Assembly: GCA_029564765.1 (NCBI GenBank)
Contig: JAKQPK010000013.1
Coordinates: forward strand, 28,216-92,215
DNA: 64,000 nucleotides
DNA from: Candidatus Omnitrophota bacterium
GTDB taxonomy: Bacteria > Omnitrophota > Gorgyraeia > Zapsychrales > Aceulaceae
Reading direction: 5' to 3'
The stretch's first letter is position 1; each line of letters begins with the position of its first letter. A model generated the notes under the pieces. The model did no database searches, was not told where the DNA came from, and worked only from the letters and a program-made list of their open reading frames with translations. Made by a program: the position numbers and the translations under genes. Of this stretch, positions 8,694 through 28,463 are shown one piece after another.

Positions 8694-8719
8694 TGTACCA
8701 ACAAGTAGGGCAACGAAGT

Positions 8720-8758: not shown

Positions 8759-8772
8759 ACGGGCACAGAAGT

Positions 8773-8807: not shown

Positions 8808-8831
8808 ATGCTTCAAAGGTGGGCAATGAAG

Positions 8832-8880
8832 TCCTCAAGATAAGGCCAAAGAAGGCAAGAACTTAGCTTGAGGATTTTTT
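8832..8880 (+). terminator. Intrinsic-terminator-like hairpin 3 (UCCUCAAG...CUUGAGGA then UUUUUU)
   Basis: Perfect 8-bp stem. The loop contains the hexaloop hairpin GCC-AAAGAA-GGC. A U6 tract follows, about 40 nt before the amtB RBS. Confidence 0.55.
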
Positions 8881-8918
8881 CTTTTAGAAAAAATCCTCTC
8901 CAATCAAAGGAGGAGGTT

Positions 8919-10262: not shown

Positions 10263-10282
10263 GCCGGAGATCGGAGGTTAAT

Positions 10283-10624
10283 ATGAAATTAATTATCGCA
10301 ATGATCCAACCGCACAAATTGCCTGATGTCAAAAAAGCGCTGTTTGATGCACAAGTTCACAAAATGACGGTCACCAATGTGTTGGGATGCGGTCAGCAAA
10401 AAGGTTATAGTGAGACATATCGTGGCGTTATTCACGAGATCAATCTTCTGAAAAAAGTACGCCTTGAGATCGCAGTAAATGAAGACTTTGTAGAACCCAC
10501 AATTAACGCTATAATGAAAGGTGCTCGTAGCGGTAATGTGGGCGATGGCAAGGTGTTTGTCCTGGACTTGCCCCGCTGTATTCGCATCAGGACTGGGGAA
10601 GAAGGAAGGGAAGCCATCGGATAA
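10283..10624 (+). CDS. glnK: Nitrogen regulatory protein P-II (GlnK type, amtB-linked)
   Basis: [13 protein letters not shown]...[13 protein letters not shown] (T-loop with the conserved Tyr)...DGKVFV. Lies immediately downstream of amtB. Confidence 0.9.
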
Positions 10625-10659
10625 CCTTTGATCATGATCATCCTAAGGAGGAAAGGGCA

Positions 10660-12765: not shown

Positions 12766-12768
12766 TCT

Positions 12769-13473
12769 ATGCATGTTTTAGCTGTTCAACATGTTTCAAT
12801 TGAAGGACTAGGTCTTTTTGAAGCACTACTGAAAGAATCTGGCGCGCAAACAACGGTCGTTGATGTTAGCATTGGTGACCAGCTTCCGCTTGATCCCAAG
12901 GATTTTCAGGCCGTTATCAGCCTTGGGGGGCCTATGAATGTTTATGAAGAGGAAAAATATCCTTTTCTAAAATGTGAAAATACGTTCATTCAAAATATTC
13001 TTGAAGCTGAGATCCCATTCTTAGGGATCTGCTTGGGTTCTCAGCTTTTAGCAAAAGCTGCGGGTGCGTGTGTTCAGAAAGCGCCCTTTGAAGAGATCGG
13101 CCTTTATGACGTCTGGCTGACAGTAGAAGGCAGGCAAGATCCTTTGTTCGCTGGGATCCAAACGCCTTTTAAGGTTTTTCAGTGGCATGAGGATATGTTC
13201 GGTATCCCCGCGCAGAAAGGCGTTTGCTTAGCCGGATCGGATATGTGCCCTCATCAGGCGTGCCGCATCGGTCAAAACGCGTATGGCCTGCAGTTTCATG
13301 TGGAAGTAACTCAGGATATGATCATCAGCTGGATGCAAGAATATTGGAAGATCAAAAATGTTTATGATCATGAAGATTCTCGGAAAGTTCTGGAAGAGTA
13401 TGCTCGGGCGCAAAAAGGCCTTTATAACGTTGCCACAAAGATCTTTACCAATTTTCTATCATTAATACGCTGA
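12769..13473 (+). CDS. Class I glutamine amidotransferase (GATase1) domain protein
   Basis: MHVLAVQHVSIEGLG...GICLGSQLLAKAAGA (catalytic Cys)...LQFHVEV (His). GMP-synthase-like GATase1 fold. Confidence 0.75.
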   Translation: MHVLAVQHVSIEGLGLFEALLKESGAQTTVVDVSIGDQLPLDPKDFQAVISLGGPMNVYEEEKYPFLKCENTFIQNILEAEIPFLGICLGSQLLAKAAGACVQKAPFEEIGLYDVWLTVEGRQDPLFAGIQTPFKVFQWHEDMFGIPAQKGVCLAGSDMCPHQACRIGQNAYGLQFHVEVTQDMIISWMQEYWKIKNVYDHEDSRKVLEEYARAQKGLYNVATKIFTNFLSLIR

Positions 13474-13514
13474 TTTTTTTTGATCAAGGATGCCTAAAAA
13501 ATAGGCAAGACACA

Positions 13515-15209
13515 ATGAAGAAAAGTATCCGTATTGGCTTAGCACAGATCAACACAACTGTTGGAGACCTAGCAGGTAACCAGAAAAAGATCTGCGCGTA
13601 TATCGGTAAGGCACGACAGTCCGGTTGTGATATTGTCGTCTTTCCAGAGCTTGCGATCACGGGATATCCTCCGGAAGATCTTTTGCTAAAAAAACATTTT
13701 ATCGCCGCCAACCGCAAGGCGATCCAGGCGGTCGCTGGCGAAGCCAAGGATATCGTTGCCGTGGTCGGCTTTGTGGATGTTGATGTTCACGGGCATCTGT
13801 ACAATGCGGCGGCGATCATCGCCGGCAAGAAGATACAAAGCGTTTATCGCAAGAATCATTTGCCCAATTATGGTGTTTTTGACGAGCAAAGGTATTTTAC
13901 ATGCGGCCGCGATATCAATATTTTTTACTATGATGGCTTAAAGATCGGTGTCAGCATTTGTGAAGACATCTGGCAGGGATCAGAGTATTGTAAGCGTTAT
14001 GCCAAACAAGGCGCGAGAATACTTTTGAATTTATCCGCCTCTCCTTACCACTGTTATAAAAACAGCGAGCGTCAGACGGTCCTAAAAGCATGTGCCCGTA
14101 CTAGTCGCAGCGTGGTGTGTTATTGCAATCTGGTGGGCGGTCAAGATGAGCTTGTCTTTGACGGACAAAGTGTTATTTTGGACTCAAAAGGCCATTGGAT
14201 AACTTCAGCTGAAGCTTTTCAAGAAGATTTGTGCGTTACGGATGTTCTTGTGGAAACTTCAGCAGGACGCAAAGGCCAAGATCTCAAGGGCTTTTCTTCT
14301 CAGCGCTCATCCAGCCATCCAAAGATTTTGATCACACGTAAAAAAGTTCAGCCATTATCGCGGATTGATGAGATCTATCAAGCGTTGGTTTTGGGAACGC
14401 GGGATTATGTGGTCAAGAACGGCTTTCAGAACGTAGTTATAGGATTGAGCGGAGGCATTGATTCAGCGCTGGTGGCGACGATCGCCAAAGATGCTTTAGG
14501 CCCAGACCATGTTTTGGGGGTTTGCATGCCATCGCGATATACCTCTGAGGAGACATTGCGTGACGCCAGGGCTCAGGCGCATAGTTTAGGGATCTGTTTT
14601 CAACAGATCCCAATTGATGAATTGTTTTCTGCGTATCTAAAGGTCCTGCAGCCGATCTTTGTGGATCATGCGGTGAACATCGCGGAAGAAAATCTACAGG
14701 CGCGCATTCGAGGAAACCTTTTGATGGCGCTTTCTAATAAATTTGGCCACTTAGTCCTTACGACCGGCAACAAAAGTGAGATCGCTGTCGGCTACTGCAC
14801 TTTGTATGGAGATATGGCCGGGGGTTTTGCTGTGATCAAGGATGTTCCGAAAACCGTTGTTTATCAGCTGGCCCGCAGGATCAATGTTCAGCAAGGCAAA
14901 GAAGTGATCCTTAAGAGCATTATTGATCGAGCTCCGACAGCAGAATTAAAAGAAAACCAGAAAGATCAAGACACGCTTCCCGCGTATGATGTGTTAGATG
15001 CGATCTTGCAGGATTATGTTGAGAATGACAAAGGATTGGCGCAGCTAAAGCGTCCAGGTCGCGATGCTGCGCTTATAAAAAATATTGTACAGCTTGTTGA
15101 TCGGATGGAATATAAGCGCCGTCAAGCTCCTTTAGGCGTGAAGATAACCCCTAAGGCGTTTGGCAGGGATCGGCGATTACCCATTACCAATCAATATCGC
15201 GAAAGATAG
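13515..15209 (+). CDS. nadE: Glutamine-dependent NAD+ synthetase NadE (nitrilase/CN-hydrolase domain plus NAD synthetase domain)
   Basis: N-terminal CN-hydrolase (IGLAQINTTVGD...FPELAITGY). C-terminal PP-loop GLSGGIDSALVA. Confidence 0.9.
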   Translation: MKKSIRIGLAQINTTVGDLAGNQKKICAYIGKARQSGCDIVVFPELAITGYPPEDLLLKKHFIAANRKAIQAVAGEAKDIVAVVGFVDVDVHGHLYNAAAIIAGKKIQSVYRKNHLPNYGVFDEQRYFTCGRDINIFYYDGLKIGVSICEDIWQGSEYCKRYAKQGARILLNLSASPYHCYKNSERQTVLKACARTSRSVVCYCNLVGGQDELVFDGQSVILDSKGHWITSAEAFQEDLCVTDVLVETSAGRKGQDLKGFSSQRSSSHPKILITRKKVQPLSRIDEIYQALVLGTRDYVVKNGFQNVVIGLSGGIDSALVATIAKDALGPDHVLGVCMPSRYTSEETLRDARAQAHSLGICFQQIPIDELFSAYLKVLQPIFVDHAVNIAEENLQARIRGNLLMALSNKFGHLVLTTGNKSEIAVGYCTLYGDMAGGFAVIKDVPKTVVYQLARRINVQQGKEVILKSIIDRAPTAELKENQKDQDTLPAYDVLDAILQDYVENDKGLAQLKRPGRDAALIKNIVQLVDRMEYKRRQAPLGVKITPKAFGRDRRLPITNQYRER

Positions 15210-15210
15210 T

Positions 15211-15444
15211 ATGGCGCTAGAACAAAAAAAGAATAAAGTTGGCTCTCGAGTGGTAGATCATGATGCGCTGCGTATCGCGTATCGCGTGATCGTTGAGCGC
15301 GTAGAGAAAGGCTTGATCGAAAAAGCACTCGGGATCACGGCAGGAAACCAGATCGTTGCTGCCAAAGTGTTGGGCATTAATCGGAACACGATCCGTCATA
15401 AAATACGCAGGTTTGGCATCAAGGTTACGAGATTCAAAAAATGA
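15211..15444 (+). CDS. Small Fis-family HTH DNA-binding protein (stand-alone NtrC-C-terminal/Fis-type HTH)
   Basis: LIEKALGITAGNQIVAAKVLGINRNTIRHKIRRFGI matches the Fis/NtrC HTH_8 motif. Its start abuts the nadE stop and its stop overlaps the gltB start. Confidence 0.6.
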   Translation: MALEQKKNKVGSRVVDHDALRIAYRVIVERVEKGLIEKALGITAGNQIVAAKVLGINRNTIRHKIRRFGIKVTRFKK

Positions 15445-18400
15445 AAAACAAAAACATTCCTTATCGGCAAGGACTCTATGATCCGGCCCACGAGCACGAT
15501 AGCTGCGGTGTCGGTTTTGTTGTGAACATCAACGCGGAAAGATCACATTTGATCGTTGAGCGCGGCATAGAAGTCCTGCGCAAATTATTGCATCGAGGAG
15601 CTACCGCCGATGATCATAAGACAGGTGACGGCGCGGGGATCCTGCTGCAAATCCCGGACGCGTTCTTGCGTACACAATGTCAGGCGCTTAAGATCAACTT
15701 GCCAGCCGCTGGACAATTTGGCGTTGGCATGATCTTTATGCCGCAGCAAGAGCCAGAGCGAAAACATTGTCAAAGGATCGTTGAAGAAACAACCATTGAA
15801 GAAGGGCTTGATTTTCTCGGCTGGCGGGTGGTCCCGGTATGTGACAGCACGCTAGGTAAGAAGGCCAAAGAAGAACAGCCTTTTGTTATGCAATGTTTTA
15901 TCGCTAAGCAGGGCCTAGAAAGAATATCTGGAGCCTTGGAGCGCAAACTCTATGTTCTTCGCCGGCAGATCGAACTCAAGGTCGAGGCAGCTTTAGCGCT
16001 GCAGGATCGATTTTATATCCCTAGCTTTTCTAGCCAAACGATCGTTTATAAGGGTTTGTTGATGGGAACGCAGCTGACGGAGTTTTATTTAGACTTGAAC
16101 GCTCCTTCGTTTGTGAGCGCTTTGGCCGTGATCCATCAGCGCTATAGCACAAACACGTTCCCTTCCTGGAAGCTCGCGCAGCCTTTTCGCTATCTTGCTC
16201 ACAACGGAGAGATCAATACGCTGCGTGGCAACCTTAACCAGATGAAGGCTAGAGAGAAATTCTTAAAAAGTGATCTGTTCAAGGAAGAGCTAAAAAAGAT
16301 CTTACCGGTGATCGATCCCCATGGAAGCGATTCAGCCTGTTTAGACAACGCGTTAGAATTGTTAACATCCTGCGGCCGCGATCTTCCGCACGCGATGATG
16401 ATGTTGATCCCTCAGGCGTGGGGCTTAAAATATCCTATCGGCCCTGATCTGCGTGGGTTTTTTGAGTATCACGCAGGCTTAATGGAACCTTGGGACGGGC
16501 CGGCAGCGGTTGCTTTTAGCAACGGACTTTCCGTTGGAGCTTTGTTAGACCGTAACGGTCTTCGACCAGCGCGCTATACCATCACACGGGATAATTTTAT
16601 GGTGCTAGCCTCAGAGACCGGTGTGCTTAATTTTGCCGAAGAGAATGTTATTGAGAAAGGCGCCTTAAGGCCCGGCGAAATGATCTTGGTGGATCTCGAT
16701 AAAAAAAGAGTTGTAAAGAACACAGAGATAAAGACATTTTATACCCGGCGACAACCATATCGACGATGGGTGCAAGAAAATAAGATCGCGCTGCATGGGC
16801 TGTTCAATGATGTGGCTCCTGTACCTGTTGATACAAAAAAACTTCTTTTTTCACAAAAACTTTTTGGCTATACGCGTGAAGATATTGAAATGGTCCTTAC
16901 GCCTATGGCGGTAACCGGACATGAGCCTGTGGGGTCTATGGGCGCAGATACGCCATTGGCTGTGTTATCTGACAAGCCTCAGCTGTTGTATTGGTATTTC
17001 AAACAATTATTCGCGCAGATCACCAACCCTGCTATTGACCCTATTCGCGAGGAACTCGTGATGTCTTTGATGACATTCATGGGTAATCCAGGAAACATCT
17101 TATCAGAGATCCCGCAGAATAGCCGCCTGATCAAGCTAGCCCATCCTATTTTTTCAAATGAAGACTTGGAGCGGATCCAATCTTTGAACTTGGAAGAATT
17201 CTGGACAACGACCTTGCAGATGGGATTTTCATCTCATGGCTGCGGTTCTAATTTGGAAGAGGCCTTGGGTCAAATTTGCCGCGCGGCTGAAGCGTCGGTC
17301 GCGAATGGCTGTTCGATCATCATTCTGAGCGATCGCAATCTTTCCAGTGATCTTATTCCGATCCCAGCTCTTTTGGCTGTTTCTGCCGTCAATCAGCATT
17401 TGATCGCTAAGGGTATGAAGGCTGGCGTTGACCTCATTGTTGAAACAGCAGAGGCGAGAGAAGTTCATCATATTGCACTTTTGCTGGGATTTGGCGCTGC
17501 CGCTGTCAACCCGTATTTTGCTTTTGAGATCATCGCGGATATGGTGGCACGCAAGTTGCTGCCTGCCGATGTGCCTGTGACAAAAGCCATTGAAAATTAT
17601 ATTGAAGCGCTTTGCAAAGGGCTTTTGAAGGTCATGTCCAAAATGGGGATCTCAACATTGCGCAGCTATCGTGGATCACAGATCTTTGAAGCGGTTGGGC
17701 TTAGCTGCGATGTTGTTGAGAGATATTTTACTGGAACGGCTTCCCGCGTTGAAGGTGTCGGCCTGGAAGAGATCGCCGCGGAGGCTAAGGCCCGTTATGG
17801 AGCGGCGCATGAAGAGATGACCCAGGATTCTGCGCTATTGCCCGCAGGAGGACAATATCGTTATCGTCAGAATGAAGAAAGACATTTGTGGACTCCGGAA
17901 TCGATCAGCAAGCTTCAAATGGCTACGCGCGACAAGGACTATCGCCTCTACAAAGAATATGCAGCGTTGATCAACGATCAAACGAAAAGACAAAGTACAT
18001 TGCGAGGGCTTTTTCGATTTAAAAAAACAGACCCGATCCCTCTGGAAGATGTTGAACCTGCAGAGACGATCGTGAAACGCTTTGTTACTTCGGCGATGTC
18101 ATTCGGTTCCATTAGTCGGGAGGCTCATGAAACGTTAGCGATCGCGATGAATCGCCTGAAGGCAATGAGCAATAGCGGTGAAGGCGGTGAAGATCCTGAC
18201 CGCTATCATCCTCTGCCCAACGGTGATAGCCGGTGCAGCGCGATCAAGCAGGTTGCCAGCGGACGCTTTGGCGTCACGGCTGAATATTTGGTCCATTCTA
18301 GAGAGGTTCAGATCAAGATCGCTCAAGGCGCAAAGCCCGGAGAAGGAGGACAGCTTCCAGGCCACAAGGTCAATAGTGAGATCGCGCGCGTGCGCCATTC

Positions 18401-19985
18401 AACACCAGGTGTTACGTTGATCTCGCCTCCGCCACATCACGATATTTATTCGATCGAAGATATCAAACAGCTTATCTTTGATCTGCGCAATGTTAATCCA
18501 GCAGCGCGAGTGTCTGTCAAGCTCGTTTCAGAAGTCGGCGTTGGCACGATCGCCGCTGGCGTGGCCAAAGCCCATGCCGATATGGTTTTGATCAGCGGAT
18601 ATGACGGAGGGACAGGCGCTGCCCCATTATCGTCGATCAAGCATGCTGGCGCCCCCTGGGAGCTAGGCCTGGCAGAAACCCAGCAAACCCTAGTTCTTAA
18701 TAATTTGCGTCGCTACATCCGCGTGCAGACAGACGGCCAACTAAAAACAGGACGGGATGTTGTGATCGCTGCTTTGCTTGGCGCTGAAGAATTTGGATTT
18801 GGGACAGCTCCGCTGGTTGTTTGCGGATGCGTTATGATGCGTAAATGCCATTTGAACACTTGTCCAGTTGGCGTTGCTACTCAAGACGCCCAGCTACGCA
18901 AACGTTTTACTGGCAAGCCAGAACACGTTGTTAACTTTTTTTATATGATCGCTCAAGAGATCAGAGAATATATGTCGCAATTAGGCTTTCGAACGTTGGA
19001 TGATATGATAGGGCGCAGTGATCTGCTAGAAATGAATGATGCGATCGATTTCTGGAAAGCCAAGGGCCTTGATTTTTCAAAAATATTTTTTCAGCCTGAA
19101 GTCGACGACAGTGTTGCGCGCCGCTATGTACAAGCTCAGCCGCACGCGATCGATAGCGTCCTTGACCTAAAGCTGATCACCTTGTCCAAGGAAGCTTTAG
19201 AAAAAGGAAAGCCAGTCAAGATCCAGATGCCGATTGGCAACACGGATCTAACTGTTGGAGGCATGCTTTCTGGAGAGATCGCGCGGCTTTACGGGGCTCA
19301 AGGATTACCTGATGATACGATCGTTTGTGAATTTCAAGGCGCTGCGGGTCAAAGCTTTGGGGCTTTTTGCATGAAAGGTCTTTCTTTGATCTTAAACGGA
19401 GAAGGTAACGACTATATCGGAAAAGGGCTTTGCGGAGGGAAGATCATTGTTAAGCCCGCGAAGAATGCCTTGTTTGATCCTTCGCAGAATATTCTTTGTG
19501 GCAATGTTTTACTCTATGGCGCTACATCCGGAGAAGTTTATATTTACGGACGCGCTGGGGAACGCTTCGCGATCCGCAATAGCGGAGCGAACGTGGTTGT
19601 CGAGGGTATCGGCGATCACGGGTGTGAATATATGACGGGAGGACGTGTCGTGATCTTGGGCGAGACCGGGGTCAATTTCGCTGCTGGAATGAGCGGCGGG
19701 ATCGCCTATGTTTATGACCCTGAAAACCGTCTTGATGGTCGCTGCAACCTTGACATGGTGGACCTAGAAGCTGTTCAGGATGCTGAAGATCAGAATGAAC
19801 TGAAGGCAATGATCGAAAAGCATTTTTATCATACAGCTAGCCGCAAGGCTAAAAAAATCCTAGACTCTTGGGAAACAGAATTACCGTTTTTCGTGAAAGT
19901 TTTCCCGATGGAGTATCGCCGCGTTCTGGGCCGCATGATGAAAGAAGATGAAGCTGCTAAGCGCCAAGAAGTTGTCCAGAAATAA
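15441..19985 (+). CDS. gltB: Glutamate synthase (GOGAT) large subunit
   Basis: Ntn amidotransferase N-terminus HDSCGVGFVV, central FMN/Fe-S domain, C-terminal GXGXG domain. 1514 aa. Confidence 0.95.
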   Translation: MKNKNIPYRQGLYDPAHEHDSCGVGFVVNINAERSHLIVERGIEVLRKLLHRGATADDHKTGDGAGILLQIPDAFLRTQCQALKINLPAAGQFGVGMIFMPQQEPERKHCQRIVEETTIEEGLDFLGWRVVPVCDSTLGKKAKEEQPFVMQCFIAKQGLERISGALERKLYVLRRQIELKVEAALALQDRFYIPSFSSQTIVYKGLLMGTQLTEFYLDLNAPSFVSALAVIHQRYSTNTFPSWKLAQPFRYLAHNGEINTLRGNLNQMKAREKFLKSDLFKEELKKILPVIDPHGSDSACLDNALELLTSCGRDLPHAMMMLIPQAWGLKYPIGPDLRGFFEYHAGLMEPWDGPAAVAFSNGLSVGALLDRNGLRPARYTITRDNFMVLASETGVLNFAEENVIEKGALRPGEMILVDLDKKRVVKNTEIKTFYTRRQPYRRWVQENKIALHGLFNDVAPVPVDTKKLLFSQKLFGYTREDIEMVLTPMAVTGHEPVGSMGADTPLAVLSDKPQLLYWYFKQLFAQITNPAIDPIREELVMSLMTFMGNPGNILSEIPQNSRLIKLAHPIFSNEDLERIQSLNLEEFWTTTLQMGFSSHGCGSNLEEALGQICRAAEASVANGCSIIILSDRNLSSDLIPIPALLAVSAVNQHLIAKGMKAGVDLIVETAEAREVHHIALLLGFGAAAVNPYFAFEIIADMVARKLLPADVPVTKAIENYIEALCKGLLKVMSKMGISTLRSYRGSQIFEAVGLSCDVVERYFTGTASRVEGVGLEEIAAEAKARYGAAHEEMTQDSALLPAGGQYRYRQNEERHLWTPESISKLQMATRDKDYRLYKEYAALINDQTKRQSTLRGLFRFKKTDPIPLEDVEPAETIVKRFVTSAMSFGSISREAHETLAIAMNRLKAMSNSGEGGEDPDRYHPLPNGDSRCSAIKQVASGRFGVTAEYLVHSREVQIKIAQGAKPGEGGQLPGHKVNSEIARVRHSTPGVTLISPPPHHDIYSIEDIKQLIFDLRNVNPAARVSVKLVSEVGVGTIAAGVAKAHADMVLISGYDGGTGAAPLSSIKHAGAPWELGLAETQQTLVLNNLRRYIRVQTDGQLKTGRDVVIAALLGAEEFGFGTAPLVVCGCVMMRKCHLNTCPVGVATQDAQLRKRFTGKPEHVVNFFYMIAQEIREYMSQLGFRTLDDMIGRSDLLEMNDAIDFWKAKGLDFSKIFFQPEVDDSVARRYVQAQPHAIDSVLDLKLITLSKEALEKGKPVKIQMPIGNTDLTVGGMLSGEIARLYGAQGLPDDTIVCEFQGAAGQSFGAFCMKGLSLILNGEGNDYIGKGLCGGKIIVKPAKNALFDPSQNILCGNVLLYGATSGEVYIYGRAGERFAIRNSGANVVVEGIGDHGCEYMTGGRVVILGETGVNFAAGMSGGIAYVYDPENRLDGRCNLDMVDLEAVQDAEDQNELKAMIEKHFYHTASRKAKKILDSWETELPFFVKVFPMEYRRVLGRMMKEDEAAKRQEVVQK

Positions 19986-20002
19986 CAGGAGAAGATGTTT
20001 GT

Positions 20003-21445
20003 ATGGGTGATCAAAAAGGATTCTTAACATATCAAAGAGAAGAATTGATCAAAGAGCCTGTTTCTGTGCGTAAGCAGCATTGGAAGGAATTTATTCGGCT
20101 TCCTAGTGAACCTTCTTTACGCCAGCAGGGTGCTCGGTGCATGGATTGCGGGGTGCCGTTCTGTCATTGGGGTTGTCCTATTGCTAACCTGATGCCGGAA
20201 TGGAACGATCTGGTCTATAAAGGCCGCTGGCAGGAAGCTTTTGAGCGATTAACATTGACGAATAATTTTCCAGAGTTTACGGGACGACTTTGTCCTGCGC
20301 CATGCGAGAATTCGTGCGTCCTAGCAATTAATCAACCCGCTGTTTCTATTCGTAACCTTGAGCTTGCGATCATTGAGAGAGCTTATGATCAGGGTTGGGT
20401 TCAGCCGCGTGCTCCTAAGGTCAGGACAGGCAAAAGAGTCGCGGTTATAGGTTCTGGGCCATCTGGATTAGCTTGCGCGGATCAGCTCAATAAGTTCGGC
20501 CATTATGTGGAGGTCTTTGAAAAGAATGAAGCAATTGGCGGGCTTTTGGTTCTGGGGATCCCGGATTTTAAGCTTGAAAAAGGGGTTATTGAGCGGCGCG
20601 TGGCATTGATGCAGAAGGAAGGAATTGTCTTTCATAAGAAAATACATGTTGGAGAGGGTCTTAAGCTCAGCGATCTTCAAAAGAAATATGACGCGATCGT
20701 GCTTTGCACGGGAGCGGAGCAGACAAGAGGGCTGAATGTGCCGGGCGCTGATCTAAAAGGTGTCTATCAGGCTATGGAGTATTTGACACAACAAAACCGA
20801 GTTAACGCTGGTCAGCGTATTGACCAGAAGGTCCGTATCACGGCTCAAGGAAAAAGGGTGGTCGTTCTGGGTGGAGGAGATACAGGCTCTGATTGTGTCG
20901 GAACAGCGAATCGTCAGGGCGCGCGGTCCGTTAAGCAGTTTGAAATCCTCCCTCGCCCGCCCGAGGCTCGAGCTGAAGATAATCCTTGGCCGCAGTGGGC
21001 CAGCATCTATCGCAAATCAAGTTCTCAAGAAGAGGGTGTTGAGCAAGATTATTGCGTGATGACGAAGGCATTGAGCGGGCAGCAAGGGCAACTTCAGAAA
21101 CTTCATGCCGTGCGCTTATCTTATGGAGAAAAAGACCTTGCAACAGGACGCCGTTCAATGCAGGAGATCCCTGGGTCCGATTTTGAGGTTCCTTGTGATC
21201 TGCTGATCCTTGCCTTAGGTTTTTTAGGGCCTGTAAAAAAAGGTTTGCTGGAGGAGTTTTCTTTTGCGACAAATGAGCGTGGGAATGTTAAGACCTATGA
21301 ATTTTATATGACAAGTGTCTCTGGTATTTTCTCGGCAGGTGACATGCGTCGAGGGCAGTCGCTGATCGTGTGGGCTATTGAAGAGGGCCGAAAAGTTGCC
21401 GCAGGCGTTCATCAATGGTTATTTCAAAAGAAGCAACAATTTTAA
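20003..21445 (+). CDS. gltD: Glutamate synthase small subunit (NADPH-dependent, GltD)
   Basis: N-terminal Fe-S cysteine clusters (CMDCGVPFCHWGCP, CPAPCENSC) and FAD/NAD(P) Rossmann motifs VAVIGSGPSGLACA and VVVLGGGDTGSDC. Confidence 0.9.
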   Translation: MGDQKGFLTYQREELIKEPVSVRKQHWKEFIRLPSEPSLRQQGARCMDCGVPFCHWGCPIANLMPEWNDLVYKGRWQEAFERLTLTNNFPEFTGRLCPAPCENSCVLAINQPAVSIRNLELAIIERAYDQGWVQPRAPKVRTGKRVAVIGSGPSGLACADQLNKFGHYVEVFEKNEAIGGLLVLGIPDFKLEKGVIERRVALMQKEGIVFHKKIHVGEGLKLSDLQKKYDAIVLCTGAEQTRGLNVPGADLKGVYQAMEYLTQQNRVNAGQRIDQKVRITAQGKRVVVLGGGDTGSDCVGTANRQGARSVKQFEILPRPPEARAEDNPWPQWASIYRKSSSQEEGVEQDYCVMTKALSGQQGQLQKLHAVRLSYGEKDLATGRRSMQEIPGSDFEVPCDLLILALGFLGPVKKGLLEEFSFATNERGNVKTYEFYMTSVSGIFSAGDMRRGQSLIVWAIEEGRKVAAGVHQWLFQKKQQF

Positions 21446-21463: not shown

Positions 21464-24124
21464 ATGAAACAAGATCATCTCGCGGCTAACACCGGACTTC
21501 CTGGCTTAGACGAGATCCTGCAAGGCGTACGCTTGGGGGATAATGTTGTTTTTCAGGTCGATAGCATTGATGATTATGCGTGTTTCGCGCATCCGTTCTG
21601 CCAAGGTGCCGTTAAAACCAAGAAAGACCTTATTTATTTTCGTTTCGCGCAGCATGCTTCTCTTCTCCCTCCCGGGGTTAGCGCGCATGTTTATGAGCTA
21701 AATCCAGAGGCGGGATTTGAGAGCTTCCTTTCTGAGATCTTTGCCGTGATCGAGAAATTCGGCAAAGGCGCTTTTTATGTTTTTGACTGTTTATCAGACC
21801 TGACCGCTGATTGGTATAGCGATCGTATGTTGGGAAATTTTTTCATGTTGACCTGTCCTTATCTGTACGATTTTGATACGGTCGCGTATTTTGCGTTGTT
21901 GCGCAACAATCACACACCACTAGCGACCGACGCGATCCATCGCACGGCTCAAGTTGTTCTAGATATTTATCAGGATAATGAGAGTTGCTATGTTCACCCG
22001 CTGAAGGTCCAAGGGCGATATTCTTCGATGATGTATATGTTGCACCGTTGGGAAGGCGATCAATTTCCAGCCGTTGTCCGTAGCTCTGAGACCGCCGAGA
22101 TCCTTTCAAAGGTAAGTCAGCCATGGTTGGATTTTACCATGCAGCGCCACGATGCTTGGGCGCGGAATTTTTTGCAAGCTCAGGAGGTCGTTAGCGCTAC
22201 ACGTTTCGACCGACAGGCCGCATGGAAAAACAGCAAACTGTTCCGTCATTTATTGCGCATGGCTGTGACCCGAGAGGAGCGTTTTCTTGAGCTGGCTGCT
22301 AAATATTTTGATTTTTCTGACGTGGTTGAAATAGGTAAGCGCATGATCGGGACTGGGCTGATCGGAGGAAAGTCCGTAGGTTTGCTGTTATCGCGCGCGA
22401 TATTAAAAAAAGAAGATCCGCGGCTTTCTGCTAAGCTTGAGCCTCATGATTCATTTTTTATCGGATCAGATGTTTTTTATACTTATTTGATCGAAAATCA
22501 ATGTTGGTGGATGCGGCGCGATCTTAGCGCCTCTGCCCCGAACTTCGCGGGCGCCCAAGAGCTTCAAGCGCGTATGCGCGCAGGATCTTTTCCTGCAGAT
22601 ATTAAAAATCAATTTATTGAGATGTTAGAATATTTTGGGCAGTCGCCGATCATTGTGCGTTCATCAAGCCTTCTGGAGGACGCGTATGGTAACGCTTTTT
22701 CTGGTAAATATGAAAGTGTTTTTTGTGTCAACCAGGGGACCCCGGAAGAACGTTTAGAAAGCTTTATGAACGCGGTCCGTACCGTGTACAGCAGCGCGGT
22801 CAGCAAGGACGCTTTGAGTTATCGCGCGCACTGGGGATTGCTTGATCAAGATGAGCAGATGGGGTTGCTGGTCCAACGCGTTTCAGGGTCTTTTTATGAG
22901 GGCCAATATTTCCCGCAGATCGCCGGTGTTGGCTTTTCTTTTAACCCTTATGTCTGGAGCAGCGACATTGATCCGGCGGCAGGATTTTTGCGCCTTGTTT
23001 TTGGTTTAGGAACTCGGGCTGTTGAGCGCGTGGATGATGATTATACCCGCATCATCGCCTTGAATGCTCCTACGCGCAGGCCGGAAGGAAGTCAGGAAGA
23101 TGTGCGCAAGCACACACAGCATAAGATCGATATTTTGGACCTTAAACAAAATCAGCCTGTGTCTCGCTCTTTTGAAGATGTCGTACGCCAGATCCCGCAA
23201 TTTCCATTGTCTATTTTTGCTTCTCAGGATGAAAGTATTGAGCGCTACGCGCGCGAACGCAATAAAGCAGATGTTTTTTCTTGGGTCTTGACCTTCGACG
23301 AGCTATTGTCGCGAACATCTTTCGTGAGCGATATGCGCGCGATGATGAGCATCCTACAGAAAGCTTATGATTATCCAGTCGATATTGAATTTACAATGAA
23401 TTTCTCGGACAACGAAAAATATAGGATCAATTTACTGCAGTGCCGTCCTTTTCAAGTGAAAGGGAATATTTTAAGCATTGAAGCGCCGCAGGATCTGGCC
23501 AAGGAGAAGGTGTTGCTGGAAACTAAAGGGCCTGTGATCGGCAGCAGTCTTGCGACGACCATCGATCGCATTATTTATATTGTCCCTGAACATTATGCCA
23601 AACTTAGCATGGCGGATCGCTATGCGGTTGCGCGGTTGATAGGCCGATTGACCCATCTACCTGAACAAGGCAGGAAGTTAACGATCATGCTGATCGGACC
23701 TGGCCGCTGGGCAACAAGCTCTCCGGAAATGGGCGTTCCAGTCTCCTTCGCTGAGATCAACACGGTTTCAGTTCTTTGTGAAGTCGTGATGATGCATGAG
23801 CATTTGGTCCCGGAAGTTTCCCTGGGGACGCATTTTTTTAATGATCTCGTTGAGATGGACATGTTATATTTTGCCCTTCATCCTGAGCGTTATGATAATA
23901 TTTTGCGCAGTGAATTCTTTCAGGGATCGCGCAATCAGCTTGAACATTTATTGAAAGACGCGTCTTCTTTGAGTTCCGTTGTTCGCGTGATCGATGCTCA
24001 AGAGATCCCGGGAGAACGTATTTGTTTAAGCGCGGATGTGACAAAACAAAGCGCTATCTGTTATCTGGGGGATGTTCCGCTATCTGTTGACAATGACAAG
24101 CCTGCGGCAAGCATGAGGAAATGA
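21464..24124 (+). CDS. KaiC/RecA-like (no P-loop) N-terminal domain fused to a PEP/pyruvate-binding (PPDK_N ATP-grasp) domain; unknown function
   Basis: N-terminus TGLPGLDEILQGVRLGDNVVFQVDS resembles the KaiC/Rad55 fold but lacks Walker A. Central IGTGLIGGKSVGLLLSRAI resembles the GGK motif of PEP synthase/PPDK nucleotide-binding domains. No His swivel domain is visible. Confidence 0.5.
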   Translation: MKQDHLAANTGLPGLDEILQGVRLGDNVVFQVDSIDDYACFAHPFCQGAVKTKKDLIYFRFAQHASLLPPGVSAHVYELNPEAGFESFLSEIFAVIEKFGKGAFYVFDCLSDLTADWYSDRMLGNFFMLTCPYLYDFDTVAYFALLRNNHTPLATDAIHRTAQVVLDIYQDNESCYVHPLKVQGRYSSMMYMLHRWEGDQFPAVVRSSETAEILSKVSQPWLDFTMQRHDAWARNFLQAQEVVSATRFDRQAAWKNSKLFRHLLRMAVTREERFLELAAKYFDFSDVVEIGKRMIGTGLIGGKSVGLLLSRAILKKEDPRLSAKLEPHDSFFIGSDVFYTYLIENQCWWMRRDLSASAPNFAGAQELQARMRAGSFPADIKNQFIEMLEYFGQSPIIVRSSSLLEDAYGNAFSGKYESVFCVNQGTPEERLESFMNAVRTVYSSAVSKDALSYRAHWGLLDQDEQMGLLVQRVSGSFYEGQYFPQIAGVGFSFNPYVWSSDIDPAAGFLRLVFGLGTRAVERVDDDYTRIIALNAPTRRPEGSQEDVRKHTQHKIDILDLKQNQPVSRSFEDVVRQIPQFPLSIFASQDESIERYARERNKADVFSWVLTFDELLSRTSFVSDMRAMMSILQKAYDYPVDIEFTMNFSDNEKYRINLLQCRPFQVKGNILSIEAPQDLAKEKVLLETKGPVIGSSLATTIDRIIYIVPEHYAKLSMADRYAVARLIGRLTHLPEQGRKLTIMLIGPGRWATSSPEMGVPVSFAEINTVSVLCEVVMMHEHLVPEVSLGTHFFNDLVEMDMLYFALHPERYDNILRSEFFQGSRNQLEHLLKDASSLSSVVRVIDAQEIPGERICLSADVTKQSAICYLGDVPLSVDNDKPAASMRK

Positions 24125-24136: not shown

Positions 24137-25237
24137 ATGGGAAAAGCAATACTCTATTTAGAAGATGGGACGTTTTTTCAAGGACGATCCCCGTTCACGT
24201 TCCACGAAACATCCGGCGAGATCGTTTTTAATACCTCAATGACTGGATATCAGGAGGTCTTGACGGATCCTTCCTACGCGGGCCAGATCGTTGTGATGAC
24301 CTATCCTTTGATCGGTAACTATGGCGTGAATGCCGATGATGTGGAATCCTCTAAGATCCATGTCGCTGGGTTTGTTGTCAAAGAATTCGCTAAAACATAT
24401 TCTAATTTTCGCGCTACAAAAAGTCTTTTGGCCTATCTTGAAGAAAACCGGATCCTCGCCATGGAAGGTGTTGATACGCGCGCTTTGACCCGACACTTGC
24501 GTATCCGCGGAGCGATGCGAGGCATTATTTCAACCCAAGATTTCGACGTTAGGTTCCTTGCTGAAAAGATGAAAAAAGTCCCCAGCATGGAGGGAAGTGA
24601 TCTGGTCAGGGATGTTAGCGTGCAACAAAAATATGTTTGGGAAGGAAGTCAGGGCGGAAGTTTAAAAGTGGCGGTTATTGATTGCGGGGTCAAGTATAAC
24701 ATCTTACGTATTCTCGCGGGATTAGATTGCCAGGTGCATGTTTTTCCAGCTAAGGCAACCGCGCAAGAGATCGAGGCGATCAAGCCTGACGGACTTTTTA
24801 TTTCTAATGGTCCAGGTGATCCTGCCGTCTTGGATTATGTCGTGAACACTGTGAAGTATTTTATTGGTCGGCTTCCGATCTTTGGCATCTGCTTAGGCCA
24901 TCAGATCTTGGGGATCGCGCTAGGAGGCAGAACGTATAAGCTTAAATTTGGCCATCGAGGCGCGAATCAGCCGGTCAACGATTCTCAAGAAAAAAAGATC
25001 GCTATTACTTCACAAAATCATGGATTCTGTGTCGATATAAATAGCTTGCCTAAAGAAGATGTTGAGATCACGCATATGAATCTGAACGATAAGACCGTTG
25101 AAGGCTTGTGTCATAAAAAATATCCTTTGTTTTGTGTGCAATATCACCCCGAAGCGTCTCCCGGGCCACATGACGCCACATACTTGTTCAAGAAGTTCGT
25201 TGTGATGATGAAAGAGCACCATGCCCCGACGAAATGA
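24137..25237 (+). CDS. carA: Carbamoyl-phosphate synthase small (glutamine amidotransferase) subunit
   Basis: CarA N-domain followed by GATase1 with GICLGHQ and the catalytic His-Pro-Glu region. Confidence 0.95.
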
Positions 25238-28200
25238 CATTAAGAAGATTTTGATCATCGGCTCCGGTCCGATCGTGATCGGTCAGGCCTGCGAATTCGA
25301 CTATTCCGGTACTCAGGCGTGTAAGGCGCTCAAGGAAGAGGGGTATCAGGTTGTGTTGGTCAATTCCAACCCCGCGACCATTATGACGGATCCTGAGATC
25401 TGTGACGCCACATATATTGAGCCGTTAAATACGGAATTCCTGGATAAGATCCTTGCTAAAGAGCGACCAGATGCTGTTTTGCCTACCTTGGGAGGGCAGA
25501 CGGGGTTGAACTTAGCGATGAAGCTCTACGAGCAAGGCATTTTGAAAAAATACAATGTTGAGTTGATCGGCGCTGGTTATGAAGTGATCAAGAAGGCGGA
25601 AGATCGTGAATGTTTTAAGAACGCTGTTTTAAAAGTGGGACTTGACGTTCCTCGTAGCGCTTTCGCGCATAATATGGCCGAGGCAAAAGAGGTCGCCAAC
25701 AAAATTGGTTTTCCCTTGATCATTCGCTCAAGCTACACACTTGGAGGAACAGGAGGGGCTATTGTTCATCAAGCTCAAGATTTTGAGCGTGCGGCTTTTT
25801 TGGGATTAGAGAGCAGCATGGTTAAAGAGATCTTGATCGAAGAATCTATTGCTGGATGGAAAGAATATGAGCTGGAGGTCATGCGTGATTGTAAGGATAA
25901 TGTTGTGATCATCTGTTCGATCGAAAATCTTGATCCTATGGGCGTTCATACTGGTGATAGTATCACGGTCGCGCCTGCGCAAACATTGACCGATAAAGAA
26001 TATCAGCTTATGCGCGATCAAACGCTTGCGCTGATCCGAGAGATTGGCGTCGAAACAGGCGGCTGTAATGTTCAGTTCGCCGTGAACCCTTACGATGGAC
26101 GCATGGTCGTTATTGAAGTGAATCCCCGCGTTTCTCGCAGCTCTGCCTTGGCATCGAAGGCAACAGGATTTCCTATCGCAAAATTTGCCGCTAAGCTGGC
26201 GGTTGGATATTCGCTGGATGAGATCCAGAACGATATTACCAGAGAAACTCCCGCATCTTTTGAGCCGACCATTGATTATTGCGTGACAAAGATCCCACGT
26301 TTTACATTTGAAAAGTTCCCGGAAGCCGGAGATTTGTTAGGCGTATCCATGAAATCCGTCGGAGAGACAATGGCGATCGGCCGAACGTTCAAAGAATCCC
26401 TGCAAAAAGGACTGCGGGGTCTTGAGATCGGCCATTGTGGGATTGATAATAAGCTTGACTACCGCGCTATTTCTGATGAAAAGATCGAGCAGCGCCTTAA
26501 GGATCCTAACGCTTCCCGCATTTTTTATGTTAAATACGCGCTGCAAAAAGGTTTTAGTCCAGAGCGCATCCATGACATCAGCAAGATCGATCCCTGGTTT
26601 ATTGCGAACATTCAGGAGCTTGTTGTTTTTGAAAGAACATTAGCTGAGGACTTTTCGACACATAAAACATTACGCGCGGATATTCTCAAAGAAGCGAAGC
26701 AGCTAGGCTTTAGTGATCTGCAAATAGCGCAATTGATCCAGTCCGATGAAATGTCTGTGCGAAAGTTGCGCCAAGAGCTCGGCATTCTCCCTGTCTTCAA
26801 GTTGGTCGACACTTGTGCCGCGGAATTTGAAGCTTATACGCCATATTATTATTCAACTTATGAAGACGAAAATGAGGCTGGAGGAAAAGCTGAGTGCGCT
26901 GGCAAAAAGAAGATCATGATCTTGGGCGGAGGCCCTAATCGTATCGGCCAGGGGATCGAGTTTGATTATTGCTGCTGTCATGCGTCCTTTGCCTTAAAAG
27001 AAATGGGCTGCGAAACGATCATGGTCAACTCGAATCCTGAAACTGTTTCCACTGACTATGACACTTCAGATCGGTTATATTTTGAGCCTTTGACATTCGA
27101 AGACGTTATGAACATCGTTGAGATCGAGAAGCCAGATGGGATCATCGTTCAGTTTGGCGGTCAGACGCCTTTGAACTTAGCCCGCAAACTCCAGGAAGCA
27201 GGGGCTCCGATCATTGGCACCTCTGTTGCATCCATTGATCTCGCAGAAGACCGAAAGAAGTTCTCTCAGTTTATTGCTAAGCTTGGCCTGGTACAGCCGT
27301 CCAACGGGTCGGCGGTCTCAACGGTTGAGGCTATCGCGATCGCGAATAGGATCGGCTATCCTGTTTTAGCGCGTCCTTCTTATGTGTTAGGTGGTAGGGC
27401 CATGAAGATCGTTTATGATGAAAAAGCGCTGTTGGCATTTATTGAAGAAGCCAAGGAAGTTTCACAGGGTCATCCTGTTCTCATCGACGAGTTCCTGGAA
27501 GATGCTATCGAGGTGGACGTCGATGGTCTTTGCGATGGACAGAAGACCTTCGTAGCTGGAATGATGGAGCATATTGAGAATGCGGGTATCCACTCAGGTG
27601 ATTCCGCTTGTGTTCTTCCTCCTCACACGCTGAGTTCGCGGATCATCGCGAACATCAAGAAGCACACATGTGATATTGCTCAAGGGCTTGGCGTGGTTGG
27701 TCTTTTGAATATTCAATTCGCGGTTAAAGGAGAAACGATCTATGTGCTCGAGGTCAACCCTCGCGCTTCGCGTACTGTACCTTTTGTCAGCAAAGCAACC
27801 GGCGTTCCTTTGGCAAAGATCGCCTCACAGATCATGGCAGGGAAAAAGATCTGCGACTTTCATTTTATAGAACCAGAGACCTTAGAGCATATTTCCGTGA
27901 AAGAATCAGTTTTGCCTTTTTCGCGATTTTCAGGGGTCGATATCGTCCTTGGCCCAGAAATGAAATCAACAGGCGAGGTTATGGGTATCGACATGACATT
28001 TGGCGCGGCCTTTGCCAAGTCTCAGGCGTGCGCCAACCAAGCCTTGCCTCAAAAAGGAAAAGTGTTCTTAAGCGTTAATGACAAGGATAAGCGACAGATC
28101 GCCTTTTTAGCAAAAAAGCTCACAGATATGGGCTTTTCGCTTTTATGTACCAAAGGAACCGCCCGGACTTTAAAGGCCAACGGCGTGAAGGCTGACATTG

Positions 28201-28457
28201 TTGATAAGGTCGATGAGGGAAAAAACAACCTTTTAAACTTGATCAAGGATCATGGCATTCAGCTGGTCATCAATACTCCTTCCGGCCAGAAAAGCCAGCT
28301 GGATATGCGCACTATTCGCGCGGCAGCAAATTTGCGCGGGATCCCTTGCATCACAACGATCCAGGGCGCTTGGGCCGCTGTCAATGGTATTGAAGCAAGC
28401 CGTGAAAAAGAATTCGGTGTGCAGTCTTTACAAGAATATGCAAAAAATAGAAAGTAG
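25221..28457 (+). CDS. carB: Carbamoyl-phosphate synthase large subunit
   Basis: Duplicated ATP-grasp halves ([24 protein letters not shown] and [21 protein letters not shown]) and an MGS-like C-terminus. 1078 aa. Confidence 0.95.
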
Positions 28458-28463
28458 GACAAT

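Follow-up and report, generated by a model that had tools for sequence, protein, structure and literature searches.

The window, by which we mean the whole 64,000-nucleotide stretch of Candidatus Omnitrophota DNA that was analysed, carries a long run of ammonium-assimilation and amidotransferase genes on one strand, and in the middle of this run lies a gene, here called gene X, that encodes a three-domain protein of 886 amino acids (21464..24124 including the stop codon, + strand). A reading made from the sequence alone had described this open reading frame, and the analysis confirms it as a real gene: it has a ribosome-binding site (GAAGGGA) 5' of the ATG, starts 18 nt past gltD, ends 12 nt ahead of carA, and matches the flanking genes in G+C content. 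The predicted protein is identical to one from a Candidatus Omnitrophota MAG (P0001). Pfam searches on the neighbours bore out the proposed placement between gltD on the 5' side and carA on the 3' side. Directly upstream are gltB and gltD, encoding the large and small subunits of glutamate synthase (15441..21445, +), preceded by amtB, glnB (10283-10624), a type-III glnA, a class-I amidotransferase gene and nadE (8868..15209, +); downstream are carA, carB, purF and pyrG, which encode glutamine-dependent enzymes (24137..31514, +). From Pfam matches and open reading frames, the run thus reads amtB-glnB-glnA(III)-GATase-nadE-gltB-gltD-X-carA-carB-purF-pyrG.

A gene for a GAF-ANTAR regulator, assigned by Pfam, precedes the cluster (5879..7120, +). 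The amtB leader (8694..8867, +) contains three GGGCANNGAAGTCC hairpins with AxxGxx hexaloops and two terminator-like hairpins; its fold z-score is -5.0, and the exact GGGCANNGAAGTCC motif occurs three times against 0.26 expected. Promoter and terminator scans placed a promoter-like site at 8665-8693 and a hairpin at 8720-8749 here and gave nothing informative around gene X, while an Rfam search over the whole window returned two tRNAs and nothing else. ANTAR-type hairpins are not enriched overall 5' of gene X at other loci (background 0.34 per 400 nt), with two found in locus L030 only. The run that holds gene X would probably start at an ANTAR-controlled amtB leader, and in this Omnitrophota genome gene X would be co-expressed with the entire set of ammonium-assimilation and amidotransferase genes.

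The central part of the protein had been read as a PPDK_N-type domain with a GGK motif, an assignment that Pfam supports strongly. Residues 299-675 (22358..23488, +) match PF01326 with an E-value of 2.1e-46 over profile positions 3-321 of 328, the sole Pfam match in the protein, and the GGK (residues 301-303) sits within the string IGTGLIGGKSVGLLLSRAI (residues 295-313). A PDB profile search returned PEP synthases, and an hhalign comparison with residues 47-360 of E. coli PpsA gave a probability of 96%, covering the ATP-grasp portion only. Among structures, the top Foldseek match was rifampin phosphotransferase (5hv1-5hv3, E 3e-11), and HpeI (9goj) ranked fourth. Across 43 diverse sequences K303, R399, E405, D406, D640, E642, Q659 and R661 are invariant, and these residues align with the PEP synthase motifs that supply ATP and Mg ligands (the GGK Lys, the RSS Arg, ED, D-x-E and Q-x-R). 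With all of its nucleotide and metal ligands retained, the ATP-grasp of X is most likely able to bind and cleave ATP. By its sequence, X belongs to the PEP-synthase/PPDK/rifampin-phosphotransferase ATP-grasp superfamily, in which it appears to have been rebuilt as a different machine.

X shares with rifampin phosphotransferase, PEP synthase and PPDK the homologous PPDK_N ATP-grasp and its conserved ATP and Mg ligands, but it has no swivel phospho-His, rifampin-binding or PEP/pyruvate-barrel domain and carries two additional domains, one N-terminal and KaiC-like, the other C-terminal and an orphan. The sequence-only reading had noted the missing swivel-His motif and PEP-utilising barrel, and neither PEP-utilizers nor PEP-utilizers_C matched, even when the C-terminal third was searched by itself at E <= 10. 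Consistent with this, the swivel domain (PF00391, GGxT[SC]H) gave no Pfam match at that threshold and no PDB profile match, and its motif is absent; the TIM barrel (PF02896) gave no Pfam match, and the protein stops about 210 residues past the ATP-grasp. The last 250 or so residues had been described as unassigned, which holds in that we found no relative in Pfam (E <= 10, isolated C-terminal third), in PDB profiles, or with Foldseek against PDB and BFVD. It understates the region, however, as residues 676-872 (23489..24079, +) form a family-specific alpha/beta domain that AlphaFold predicts with confidence (pLDDT 90.8, pTM 0.89) and that is present in 1820 clusters at 50% identity. Whatever X does, this C-domain would represent a new, predicted domain fold following a PPDK-type ATP-grasp.

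Conservation within the C-domain is concentrated in residues of catalytic appearance: four positions (G747, R748, G757 and E773) do not vary, and S786 and H790 hardly do. A GPGRW loop (residues 745-749; 23696..23710, +) contains G747 and R748, which 150 of 150 representatives share. S786 (150 of 151) and H790 (149 of 150) belong to the motif SLGTHFFND (residues 786-794; 23819..23845, +), and in the model H790 is at the start of a helix (789-797) that follows a low-confidence loop (780-786, pLDDT < 50). Some traits recall a swivel domain, namely a TH at a helix start, the location after the ATP-grasp and a similar strand order. Nevertheless, a Foldseek search with the C-domain reached a best E-value of 0.07, and hhalign against the swivel domains of PpsA and of PpsA with PtsI gave a probability of 0.3, in an insignificant alignment that pairs GPGRWGT..GVPV, and not H790, with GGRTCH..GIPAV. 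The motif-level resemblance is therefore ambiguous, and with PDB profile, Foldseek (PDB and BFVD) and hhalign comparisons all negative we rejected a diverged swivel phospho-His domain as a demonstrated claim.

The N-terminal domain (residues 1-225; 21464..22138, +), which contains the string TGLPGLDEILQGVRLGDNVVFQVDSIDDY (residues 10-38), is modelled at a pLDDT of about 90 and has a mean column identity of 75% within the family. It had been interpreted as a KaiC/RecA-like domain without a P-loop. The fold and the missing Walker A stood up. With the AlphaFold model, Foldseek recovered KaiC, PH0284 and RecA at E-values of 8e-9 to 2e-7 (probability 1.0, about 230 aligned columns), and the TM-score to PH0284 was 0.62-0.64, normalised to that protein's 236 residues. 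Walker A (G-x4-GK[ST]) is absent from X and from 33 of 33 representatives carrying the domain, these being the members of a set of 149 50%-identity representatives that were matched by the N-domain profile. HMM searches, whose failure the sequence-only reading had named as grounds for dropping the KaiC likeness, did not detect KaiC: there was no Pfam match to the KaiC family at E <= 10, no KaiC-type PDB profile match, and an hhalign probability of 0.2 against a verified KaiC CI sequence. We accordingly rejected sequence-level KaiC homology, leaving the predicted fold in support of the likeness. X also shares an N-terminal G-x-D-x-x-L-x-G motif with the KaiC/PH0284/RecA-superfamily ATPases.

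At the position of the KaiC Walker A (GxxGxGKT), as placed by eye in a manual alignment, X has the acidic stretch FQVDSIDDY (residues 30-38; 21551..21577, +), in which Y38 is invariant and D33 and D37 nearly so. YVFD108 is likewise invariant and, on a reading by eye, is a candidate for the Walker B aspartate that follows a hydrophobic strand. Judged by the 33 representatives, the loss of Walker A is a trait of the family, and ATPase or autokinase activity of the domain is implausible. Whereas KaiC is a tandem pair, X has a single KaiC-like copy fused to an ATP-grasp through a helical linker (residues 226-298; 22139..22357, +; helices 231-292 in the model) that lies outside the Pfam PPDK_N match. 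Independent of function, the predicted fold of X offers a clear case of a KaiC/RecA domain whose former nucleotide site is gone.

The family is large and modular. It spans at least 570 species-level genomes, and X is 53-68% identical across phyla, about as conserved as GltB. Its members occur as core-only proteins, as fusions of a core to X, as receiver-core (REC+core) proteins and as nucleotidyltransferase fusions. A Geobacter sp. OR-1 fused form adjoins an alpha-amylase-family gene and pgi, a single case. In the sister families the KaiC-like domain is swapped for a response-regulator receiver, or a nucleotidyltransferase of the Pol-beta type is added. Both PF00072 and PF01326 are found in all but one of the best 120 matches to the REC-core family, which is paralogous and about 29% identical to X. 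The KaiC-like domain is thus not needed for the core, as other members lack it or have a receiver domain in its place.

Sister-family genes adjoin gdh, together with NtrB/NtrC-like genes. At L091, a histidine kinase gene and a sigma54 NtrC-like gene come after the trio [REC-core][PPDK_N paralogue][GDH]; at L090, genes for PAS sensors and histidine kinases flank the same trio; and the cluster at L069 includes a metallophosphatase and a sigma54-GAF activator. Two of the five sister-family loci (L088 and L093) have neither gdh nor a GOGAT gene nearby.

The sequence-only reading had tied X to glutamine and 2-oxoglutarate metabolism from its position in one operon, and comparison of loci extends that tie well beyond the window. 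Of 73 species-level loci, 38 have gltB, a gltD-like gene, gdh or glnA-III no more than 10 kb from gene X, usually adjacent to it (immediately so in about 30 loci), in several gene orders and in at least 8 phyla. Directly next to gene X lies gltB in 13 cases, gdh in 11 (the GDH identity being confirmed by Pfam), and a gltD-like gene or glnA-III in three each. As to whether X always neighbours gltBD and carAB, proximity to carA/carB is not general: apart from the window, L005 is the one locus that has it. GAF-ANTAR, LysR or sigma54-GAF regulators adjoin it in several loci, with GAF-ANTAR homologues near it in seven (L004, L006, L008, L016, L023, L030 and L042). The 12 archaeal loci, all from Methanomassiliicoccales, have no nitrogen-gene context, nor any conserved context of their own. 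De novo clustering of neighbours across 83 loci yielded no conserved partner besides nitrogen-assimilation genes. A defence role was rejected, PADLOC giving only a marginal JetB match (E 0.004, 14 bits).

Full-text literature searches found no paper or characterised protein for the family or for its link to glutamate synthase, in line with the earlier statement that the domain combination matches no characterised protein. X adjoins glutamate-making genes in many bacterial phyla and so could be a component of their nitrogen handling that has been overlooked. Good descriptions exist of how ammonium assimilation is controlled post-translationally in proteobacteria (GlnD/GlnE/PII), actinobacteria (PknG-GarA) and cyanobacteria. 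Much less has been documented, to our knowledge, for Omnitrophota, Fibrobacterota, Spirochaetota, Elusimicrobiota, the PVC phyla, Cloacimonadota and many Deltaproteobacteria. A large, conserved and uncharacterised family that sits beside glutamate-forming enzymes, and whose relatives are tied to two-component and sigma54 regulators, is therefore a tangible candidate for the control layer that these lineages seem to lack.

The explanation we favour, with a probability of roughly 40%, is that X is a phosphotransfer enzyme, ATP-dependent and gated by a signal, whose targets are glutamate-forming enzymes. The ATP-grasp and the C-domain would together make up the catalytic core, the acceptor or substrate site would lie in the C-domain, and H790 is a candidate phospho-carrier. 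By analogy with the receiver of the sister family, the inactive KaiC-like domain may gate this core, serving for input or oligomerisation. The target would be found at the glutamate node, be it GOGAT, GDH, type-III glutamine synthetase or their PII-type regulator, and would be subject to covalent modification or some other control. PknG-GarA in actinobacteria and the nucleotidyltransferases GlnE and GlnD in proteobacteria are ATP-using modifiers that control GDH, GOGAT or GS, and the logic of X may be akin to theirs. The comparison is one of functional analogy only. Some relatives of X carry fused nucleotidyltransferase domains of the Pol-beta type, to whose superfamily GlnE and GlnD belong. 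The control reading draws on the active-looking ATP site, the catalytic-looking invariants of the C-domain, the KaiC-like fold and absent P-loop of the N-domain, the modularity of the family, the signalling genes of the sister family, the linkage to the glutamate node, the packing of the operon and the ANTAR-type amtB leader.

Several observations weigh against it. The archaeal loci and two of the five sister loci lack nitrogen or gdh context, the proposed role of H790 has no homology support given the negative swivel tests, and the receiver-domain argument is an analogy drawn from a paralogous family of about 29% identity. All characterised PPDK_N enzymes known to us rely on a canonical swivel His, absent from X, to phosphorylate small molecules. 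Conservation on a par with GltB and a mid-operon place among biosynthetic enzymes fit a core enzyme better than a regulator. Somewhat doubtful is the broader proposal that X and its sisters constitute an unrecognised nitrogen and glutamate-node control system of bacteria with type-III GS, in which a core of ATP-grasp and orphan C-domain, with an inactive KaiC-like domain, a receiver or nothing as its interchangeable input and at times an extra nucleotidyltransferase, would modify GDH, GOGAT, GS-III or PII by dikinase-type ATP chemistry and through a new phospho-acceptor domain. If true, it would be a functional counterpart of GlnD/GlnE or PknG-GarA.

The main rival, which we consider rather doubtful, is that X is a small-molecule dikinase or phosphotransferase whose substrate is a glutamate/glutamine-node metabolite, perhaps an amide or carboxylate (glutamine, 5-oxoproline or a compound derived from 2-oxoglutarate, for instance). 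The C-domain would then be the site for substrate or phospho-carrier, and the KaiC-like domain would be there for assembly only. A precedent is Cj1418 of Campylobacter jejuni, an L-glutamine kinase of the same superfamily that acts on the amide of glutamine. Cj1418 has a canonical phospho-His domain and functions in capsule modification, and X is not its ortholog, scoring 25 bits against a cut-off of 501 on PRK05849, the model that we take to cover Cj1418. No NCBIfam equivalog is close to X, which on the rifampin phosphotransferase model scores 21.1 bits against 999. The characterised relatives (PEP synthase, PPDK, rifampin phosphotransferase and HpeHI; PMC12167813) all act on small molecules, and a passage of PMC11800397 describes Cj1418 as needed for a phosphoramidate donor made from L-glutamine and ATP. 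The GltB-like conservation and biosynthetic surroundings of X fit such an enzyme, as do the archaeal copies, still 61-65% identical despite having no regulatory context. The canonical swivel His domain is missing, however, and X accompanies three alternative enzymes (GOGAT, GDH and GS-III) and regulators rather than one pathway step, while the receiver and nucleotidyltransferase fusions and the histidine-kinase neighbours resemble signalling.

It is improbable that X is a pseudoenzyme. As such it would be a sensor or scaffold, without catalysis or slow in it, that binds ATP or AMP and reports energy or nitrogen status by contacting GOGAT, GDH or GS, with the inactive KaiC-like domain for ring assembly. 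One domain is clearly a pseudo-ATPase, the canonical phospho-acceptor domain is absent, and the very high conservation would fit multiple protein contacts, but the catalytic ATP-grasp residues are all invariant over the 43 diverse sequences, and the invariant or nearly invariant R/E/S/H set of the C-domain is typical of an active site.

Far less probable is a split dikinase, as in HpeHI or phenylphosphate synthase, to which X would contribute the ATP-grasp subunit while a separate gene encodes the swivel-His and substrate-binding partner. HpeHI is a two-component dikinase of a documented subfamily, and its HpeI subunit (PDB 9goj) is a stand-alone protein of 330 residues that needs the neighbour-encoded HpeH for its swivel and substrate domains (PMC12167813). 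Like HpeI, one of its best structural matches, X is an ATP-grasp unit without a canonical swivel His of its own, and paralogous cores are often adjacent or fused. Unlike HpeI, it has two additional domains, one of them conserved and directly following the ATP-grasp, and it has no such conserved neighbour: the 83 loci held no conserved non-nitrogen partner and, by phmmer with the E. coli PpsA swivel domain, no swivel-domain ORF.

Largely refuted is the notion that X is an ordinary divergent PEP synthase, PPDK or rifampin phosphotransferase, or that its nitrogen context is coincidental, since Pfam, PDB profile and hhalign comparisons turned up no overlooked swivel His or PEP-binding barrel, NCBIfam scores were 38-51 bits against cut-offs of 598-883 (best, 51 versus 883; TIGR01418, 37.9 versus 739.75), and linkage in 38 of 73 loci in several orders compares with a few percent expected by our rough estimate. 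Some homologues are nevertheless named 'pyruvate, water dikinase' or 'phosphoenolpyruvate synthase' in databases, and many such names for genes of this family are wrong.

Gene X is an 886-codon open reading frame (window 21464-24124, + strand) with a ribosome-binding site, GAAGGGA, about 10 nt 5' of its ATG; only 18 nt separate it from the gltD stop and 12 nt from the carA start, and its G+C content (0.46-0.49) is the same as that of the neighbouring genes. A database record from a Candidatus Omnitrophota MAG (P0001), named 'PEP/pyruvate-binding domain-containing protein', is identical to X. On the same strand lie amtB (start 8868), glnB (10283), type-III glnA (10660), a stand-alone class-I amidotransferase (12769), nadE (13515), gltB (15441), gltD (20003), carA (24137), carB (25221), purF (28464) and pyrG (29907), separated by gaps of mostly 3-57 nt, the largest being 231 nt, 5' of gltB. 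Over about 22.6 kb (8868-31514) this same-strand run brings the genes for taking up and assimilating ammonium (amtB, glnB, type-III glnA, gltBD) together with those for five glutamine amidotransferases (the stand-alone class-I GATase, nadE, carAB, purF and pyrG), and amounts to a 'glutamine economy' supercluster. In one related locus, L005, the genes from type-III glnA to pyrG, and the two membrane-protein genes beyond it, are arranged as in the window, the flank stopping short of amtB and glnB. The sequence-only reading had set X between gltD and carA; adjacency to carAB proved particular to the window and L005 and is not a general feature of the family.

X is linked recurrently and strongly to glutamate-forming enzymes and nitrogen-type regulators. 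Open reading frames were called in 83 related loci and clustered de novo, and the neighbour families met most often were gltD-like genes (24 loci), gltB (20), Pfam-confirmed glutamate dehydrogenase (18), type-III glnA (8), nadE, amtB and NfnA-like genes (6 each) and GAF-ANTAR genes (5). The X ORF is intact in 73 genome loci; in 38 of them gltB, a gltD-like gene, gdh or glnA-III lies within 10 kb of X, and the immediate neighbour is gltB in 13, gdh in 11, and gltD-like or glnA-III in three each; for a random gene we would put the same linkage at a few percent, which is our own rough estimate and not a computed control. Gene order is X-gltB-gltD in Spirochaetes, Fibrobacteres, Bacteroidales, Chitinispirillum, Verrucomicrobia and Elusimicrobia, gltB-gltD-X in Omnitrophota and nfnAB-like-gdh-X in other Omnitrophota, and in Deltaproteobacteria and PVC bacteria X and glnA-III are divergently oriented. 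Such varied orders argue for repeated selection of the linkage and not for one inherited operon. In the same loci the conservation of X is close to that of GltB and exceeds that of GltD; at L017, for example, identities are 59% for X, 58% for GltB and 53% for GltD.

The tie to glutamine/2-oxoglutarate metabolism that had been proposed from the operon is supported by this wider glutamate-enzyme linkage, but in twelve archaeal loci the gene context is not conserved. Methanomassiliicoccales loci include L007, L009-L015, L031, L032 and L068. Most archaeal copies are 60-65% identical to Omnitrophota X, compared with 53-60% for most non-Omnitrophota bacterial copies, and this closeness, together with the lack of a kept gene context, suggests inter-domain transfer. 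In several Omnitrophota and Elusimicrobia loci (L006:6154-12607, L016:6117-12583, L008 and L023), X follows an NfnA-like gene, a gltD/NfnB-like gene and gdh. The NfnA-like product is an FAD/NAD-binding, 2Fe-2S protein and the gltD/NfnB-like product is about 30% identical to the window GltD; the arrangement suggests that NADPH is supplied specifically for GDH beside X.

Homologues of X form at least 8000 clusters at 90% identity, a count that may take in paralogous families, and at least 570 matches were confirmed in a species-representative genome collection. Identity to X across family matches ranges from 53% to 68%, and the taxa include Omnitrophota, Methanomassiliicoccales, Spirochaetota, Fibrobacterota, Elusimicrobiota, Verrucomicrobiota, Planctomycetota, Deltaproteobacteria and Bacteroidales, among others. 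Architectural variants show that the ATP-grasp and C-terminal domains are the constant core of the family: there are core-only proteins of about 550-670 aa, a core-only unit fused to a complete X (1470 aa, for example in Geobacter sp. OR-1), and proteins in which a Pol-beta-type nucleotidyltransferase comes after X or a doubled core. In a sister family of about 988 aa, a response-regulator receiver domain stands instead of the KaiC-like domain; all but one of its best 120 matches carry PF00072 with PF01326, and these matches come mostly from Cloacimonadota. The fused form of Geobacter sp. OR-1 (L003:6500-16052, 1472 aa) lies between a 1149-aa alpha-amylase-family gene and glucose-6-phosphate isomerase, with no nitrogen genes adjoining.

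By class, X belongs among the PPDK-type ATP-grasp enzymes. Its single Pfam family is PPDK_N (residues 299-675, E 2.1e-46, profile positions 3-321 of 328). Partial matches to the NCBIfam models for PEP synthase, PigC/RedH, rifampin phosphotransferase and PRK05849 reached 19-51 bits against cut-offs of 456-1350, and because these scores fall so far short X belongs to none of those families. A profile of 43 homologues matches PDB PEP synthases through the ATP-grasp only, and in hhalign residues 329-693 align with E. coli PpsA 47-360 (probability 96%), the alignment ending where the PpsA swivel domain starts. Residues K303, R399, E405, D406, D640, E642, Q659 and R661 are invariant and fall at the PEP synthase motifs for nucleotide and Mg, so that X has what looks like an intact dikinase-type ATP site. 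AlphaFold modelled full-length X on the 43-homologue alignment with a mean pLDDT of 83 and pTM of 0.81, and Foldseek against the PDB matched the centre of the protein to rifampin phosphotransferase (E 3e-11) and HpeI (E 9e-10).

Neither flanking domain is modelled in Pfam or NCBIfam. The proposed KaiC-like N-terminus is borne out by predicted fold but not by sequence comparison. Foldseek matched residues 1-225 to KaiC, PH0284 and RecA in the PDB (E 8e-9 to 2e-7, probability 1.0; about 230 columns, rmsd about 4 Å, TM 0.62-0.64 normalised to PH0284), which lends the KaiC/RecA fold support of a structural kind. Pfam gave nothing at E <= 10 on residues 1-289, the PDB profile search with X homologues contained no KaiC match, and hhalign of the N-domain alignment against the KaiC CI sequence, itself checked against PDB KaiC chains, gave a probability of 0.2. 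The Walker A motif is indeed absent, G-x4-GK[ST] occurring in 0 of 33 N-domain-bearing representatives at 50% identity; in a manual alignment KaiC GTSGTGKT is placed opposite VDSIDDY of X. This domain is the most conserved part of X (75% mean column identity), with invariant stretches such as DW.SDRML.NFF. It is a predicted P-loop-less KaiC fold that a receiver domain can replace.

The C-terminal region, which the sequence-only reading had left unassigned, is not filler. Modelled alone (residues 672-872, 36 sequences), it reached a pLDDT of 90.8 and pTM of 0.89, and when 1.84 billion representatives were searched exhaustively with HMMER it occurred in 1820 clusters at E <= 1e-3. The best 150 of these clusters are for the most part fragments; in the full-length proteins among them the domain comes last or has nothing but a nucleotidyltransferase after it, and it follows PPDK_N in 8 of 9 Pfam-scanned proteins. 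G747, R748, G757 and E773 are invariant in the best 150 representatives of the 1820, where S786 occurs in 150/151 and H790 in 149/150. Pfam gave nothing at E <= 10, a PDB profile search gave nothing, and Foldseek found no relative in the PDB (best E 0.068, probability 0.21) or BFVD (best E 0.38). Comparison with the swivel domains of PpsA, or of PpsA and PtsI, in hhalign gave a probability of 0.3, and the domain was rejected as a canonical swivel domain. Pfam, PDB profile, Foldseek and hhalign thus agree with the earlier claim that X has no canonical phospho-His swivel. In the AlphaFold model H790 begins a helix (789-797) past a loop with pLDDT < 50, a setting that may be reminiscent of phospho-His sites, although homology tests gave no support. 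The C-domain is an orphan, conserved and active-site-like, in a protein from which the canonical swivel and PEP-binding domains are missing.

In the sister family, gdh is nearby in three of five genomic contexts. L090 (3353-20250) and L091 (10001-19887)/L092 share a unit of the receiver-core protein, a second PPDK_N paralogue (980-994 aa) and GDH; the N-terminal half of that paralogue, about 500 residues, has no Pfam match in L090 or L091. The unit is followed in L091 by a histidine kinase and a sigma54 NtrC-like regulator and flanked in L090 by PAS sensor and histidine-kinase genes. At L089 gdh lies 6 kb off, past an inserted restriction-modification cassette; at L088 and L093 neither gdh nor a GOGAT gene is close by. 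In 'Bacterium UASB270' a single locus (L069:5093-21866) holds four paralogues of the core: one is fused to a receiver (993 aa), one is of X type (898 aa), and two share a 1700-aa protein that also has a Pol-beta nucleotidyltransferase. The locus contains two gdh genes too, along with genes for a calcineurin-like phosphoesterase and for a sigma54-GAF activator.

Full-text searches of a literature collection gave no paper on the X family. We favour a regulatory, protein-modifying role, at a probability of roughly 40%, because the input domains are swappable, nucleotidyltransferases are fused to the core and histidine-kinase and NtrC genes are neighbours, and because X associates with three alternative enzymes and not with one pathway step. 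The core would act as an ATP-dependent phosphotransfer module, gated or assembled by the N-terminal domain, with its target at the glutamate node (GOGAT, GDH or type-III glutamine synthetase). Cj1418 is a glutamine kinase of the same superfamily as X. The main rival, that X is a small-molecule dikinase, is a serious one if rather unlikely; it has superfamily precedents in HpeHI (PMC12167813) and Cj1418 (PMC11800397), and the enzyme-like conservation and mid-operon position of X also speak for it. A pseudoenzyme sensor is improbable, with a P-loop-less N-domain on one side and the predicted ATP site on the other. We consider it very unlikely that X is a split dikinase. That X is an ordinary PEP synthase, or its context a matter of chance, hardly merits consideration beside the family scores and the recurrent linkage. 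There is a fair, though less than even, chance that X is the mark of a nitrogen-control system so far unrecognised.

At the head of the run an amtB leader (8694-8867) lies behind a promoter-like site (8665-8693). It contains three exact copies of GGGCANNGAAGTCC, against 0.26 expected by chance, each able to fold into an AxxGxx hexaloop on a 4-bp stem; they are interleaved with two terminator-like hairpins that have U-runs after them. The fold z-score of the leader is -5.0, and Rfam gave no match there. In our reading it resembles a leader for ANTAR antitermination. Just upstream is the gene for a GAF-ANTAR regulator (5879-7120), and between the two a gene for a HAMP and HD-GYP-type (HD_5) protein (7150-8535) could feed another signal into the nitrogen cluster. 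At the other end, 3' of pyrG, lie genes for two polytopic membrane proteins of 543 aa (31520-33151) and 552 aa (33351-35009), with a tRNA (33181-33262) between them. Neither protein has a match in Pfam or NCBIfam; they are tandem paralogues, 35% identical (E 5e-110), and are kept in L005.
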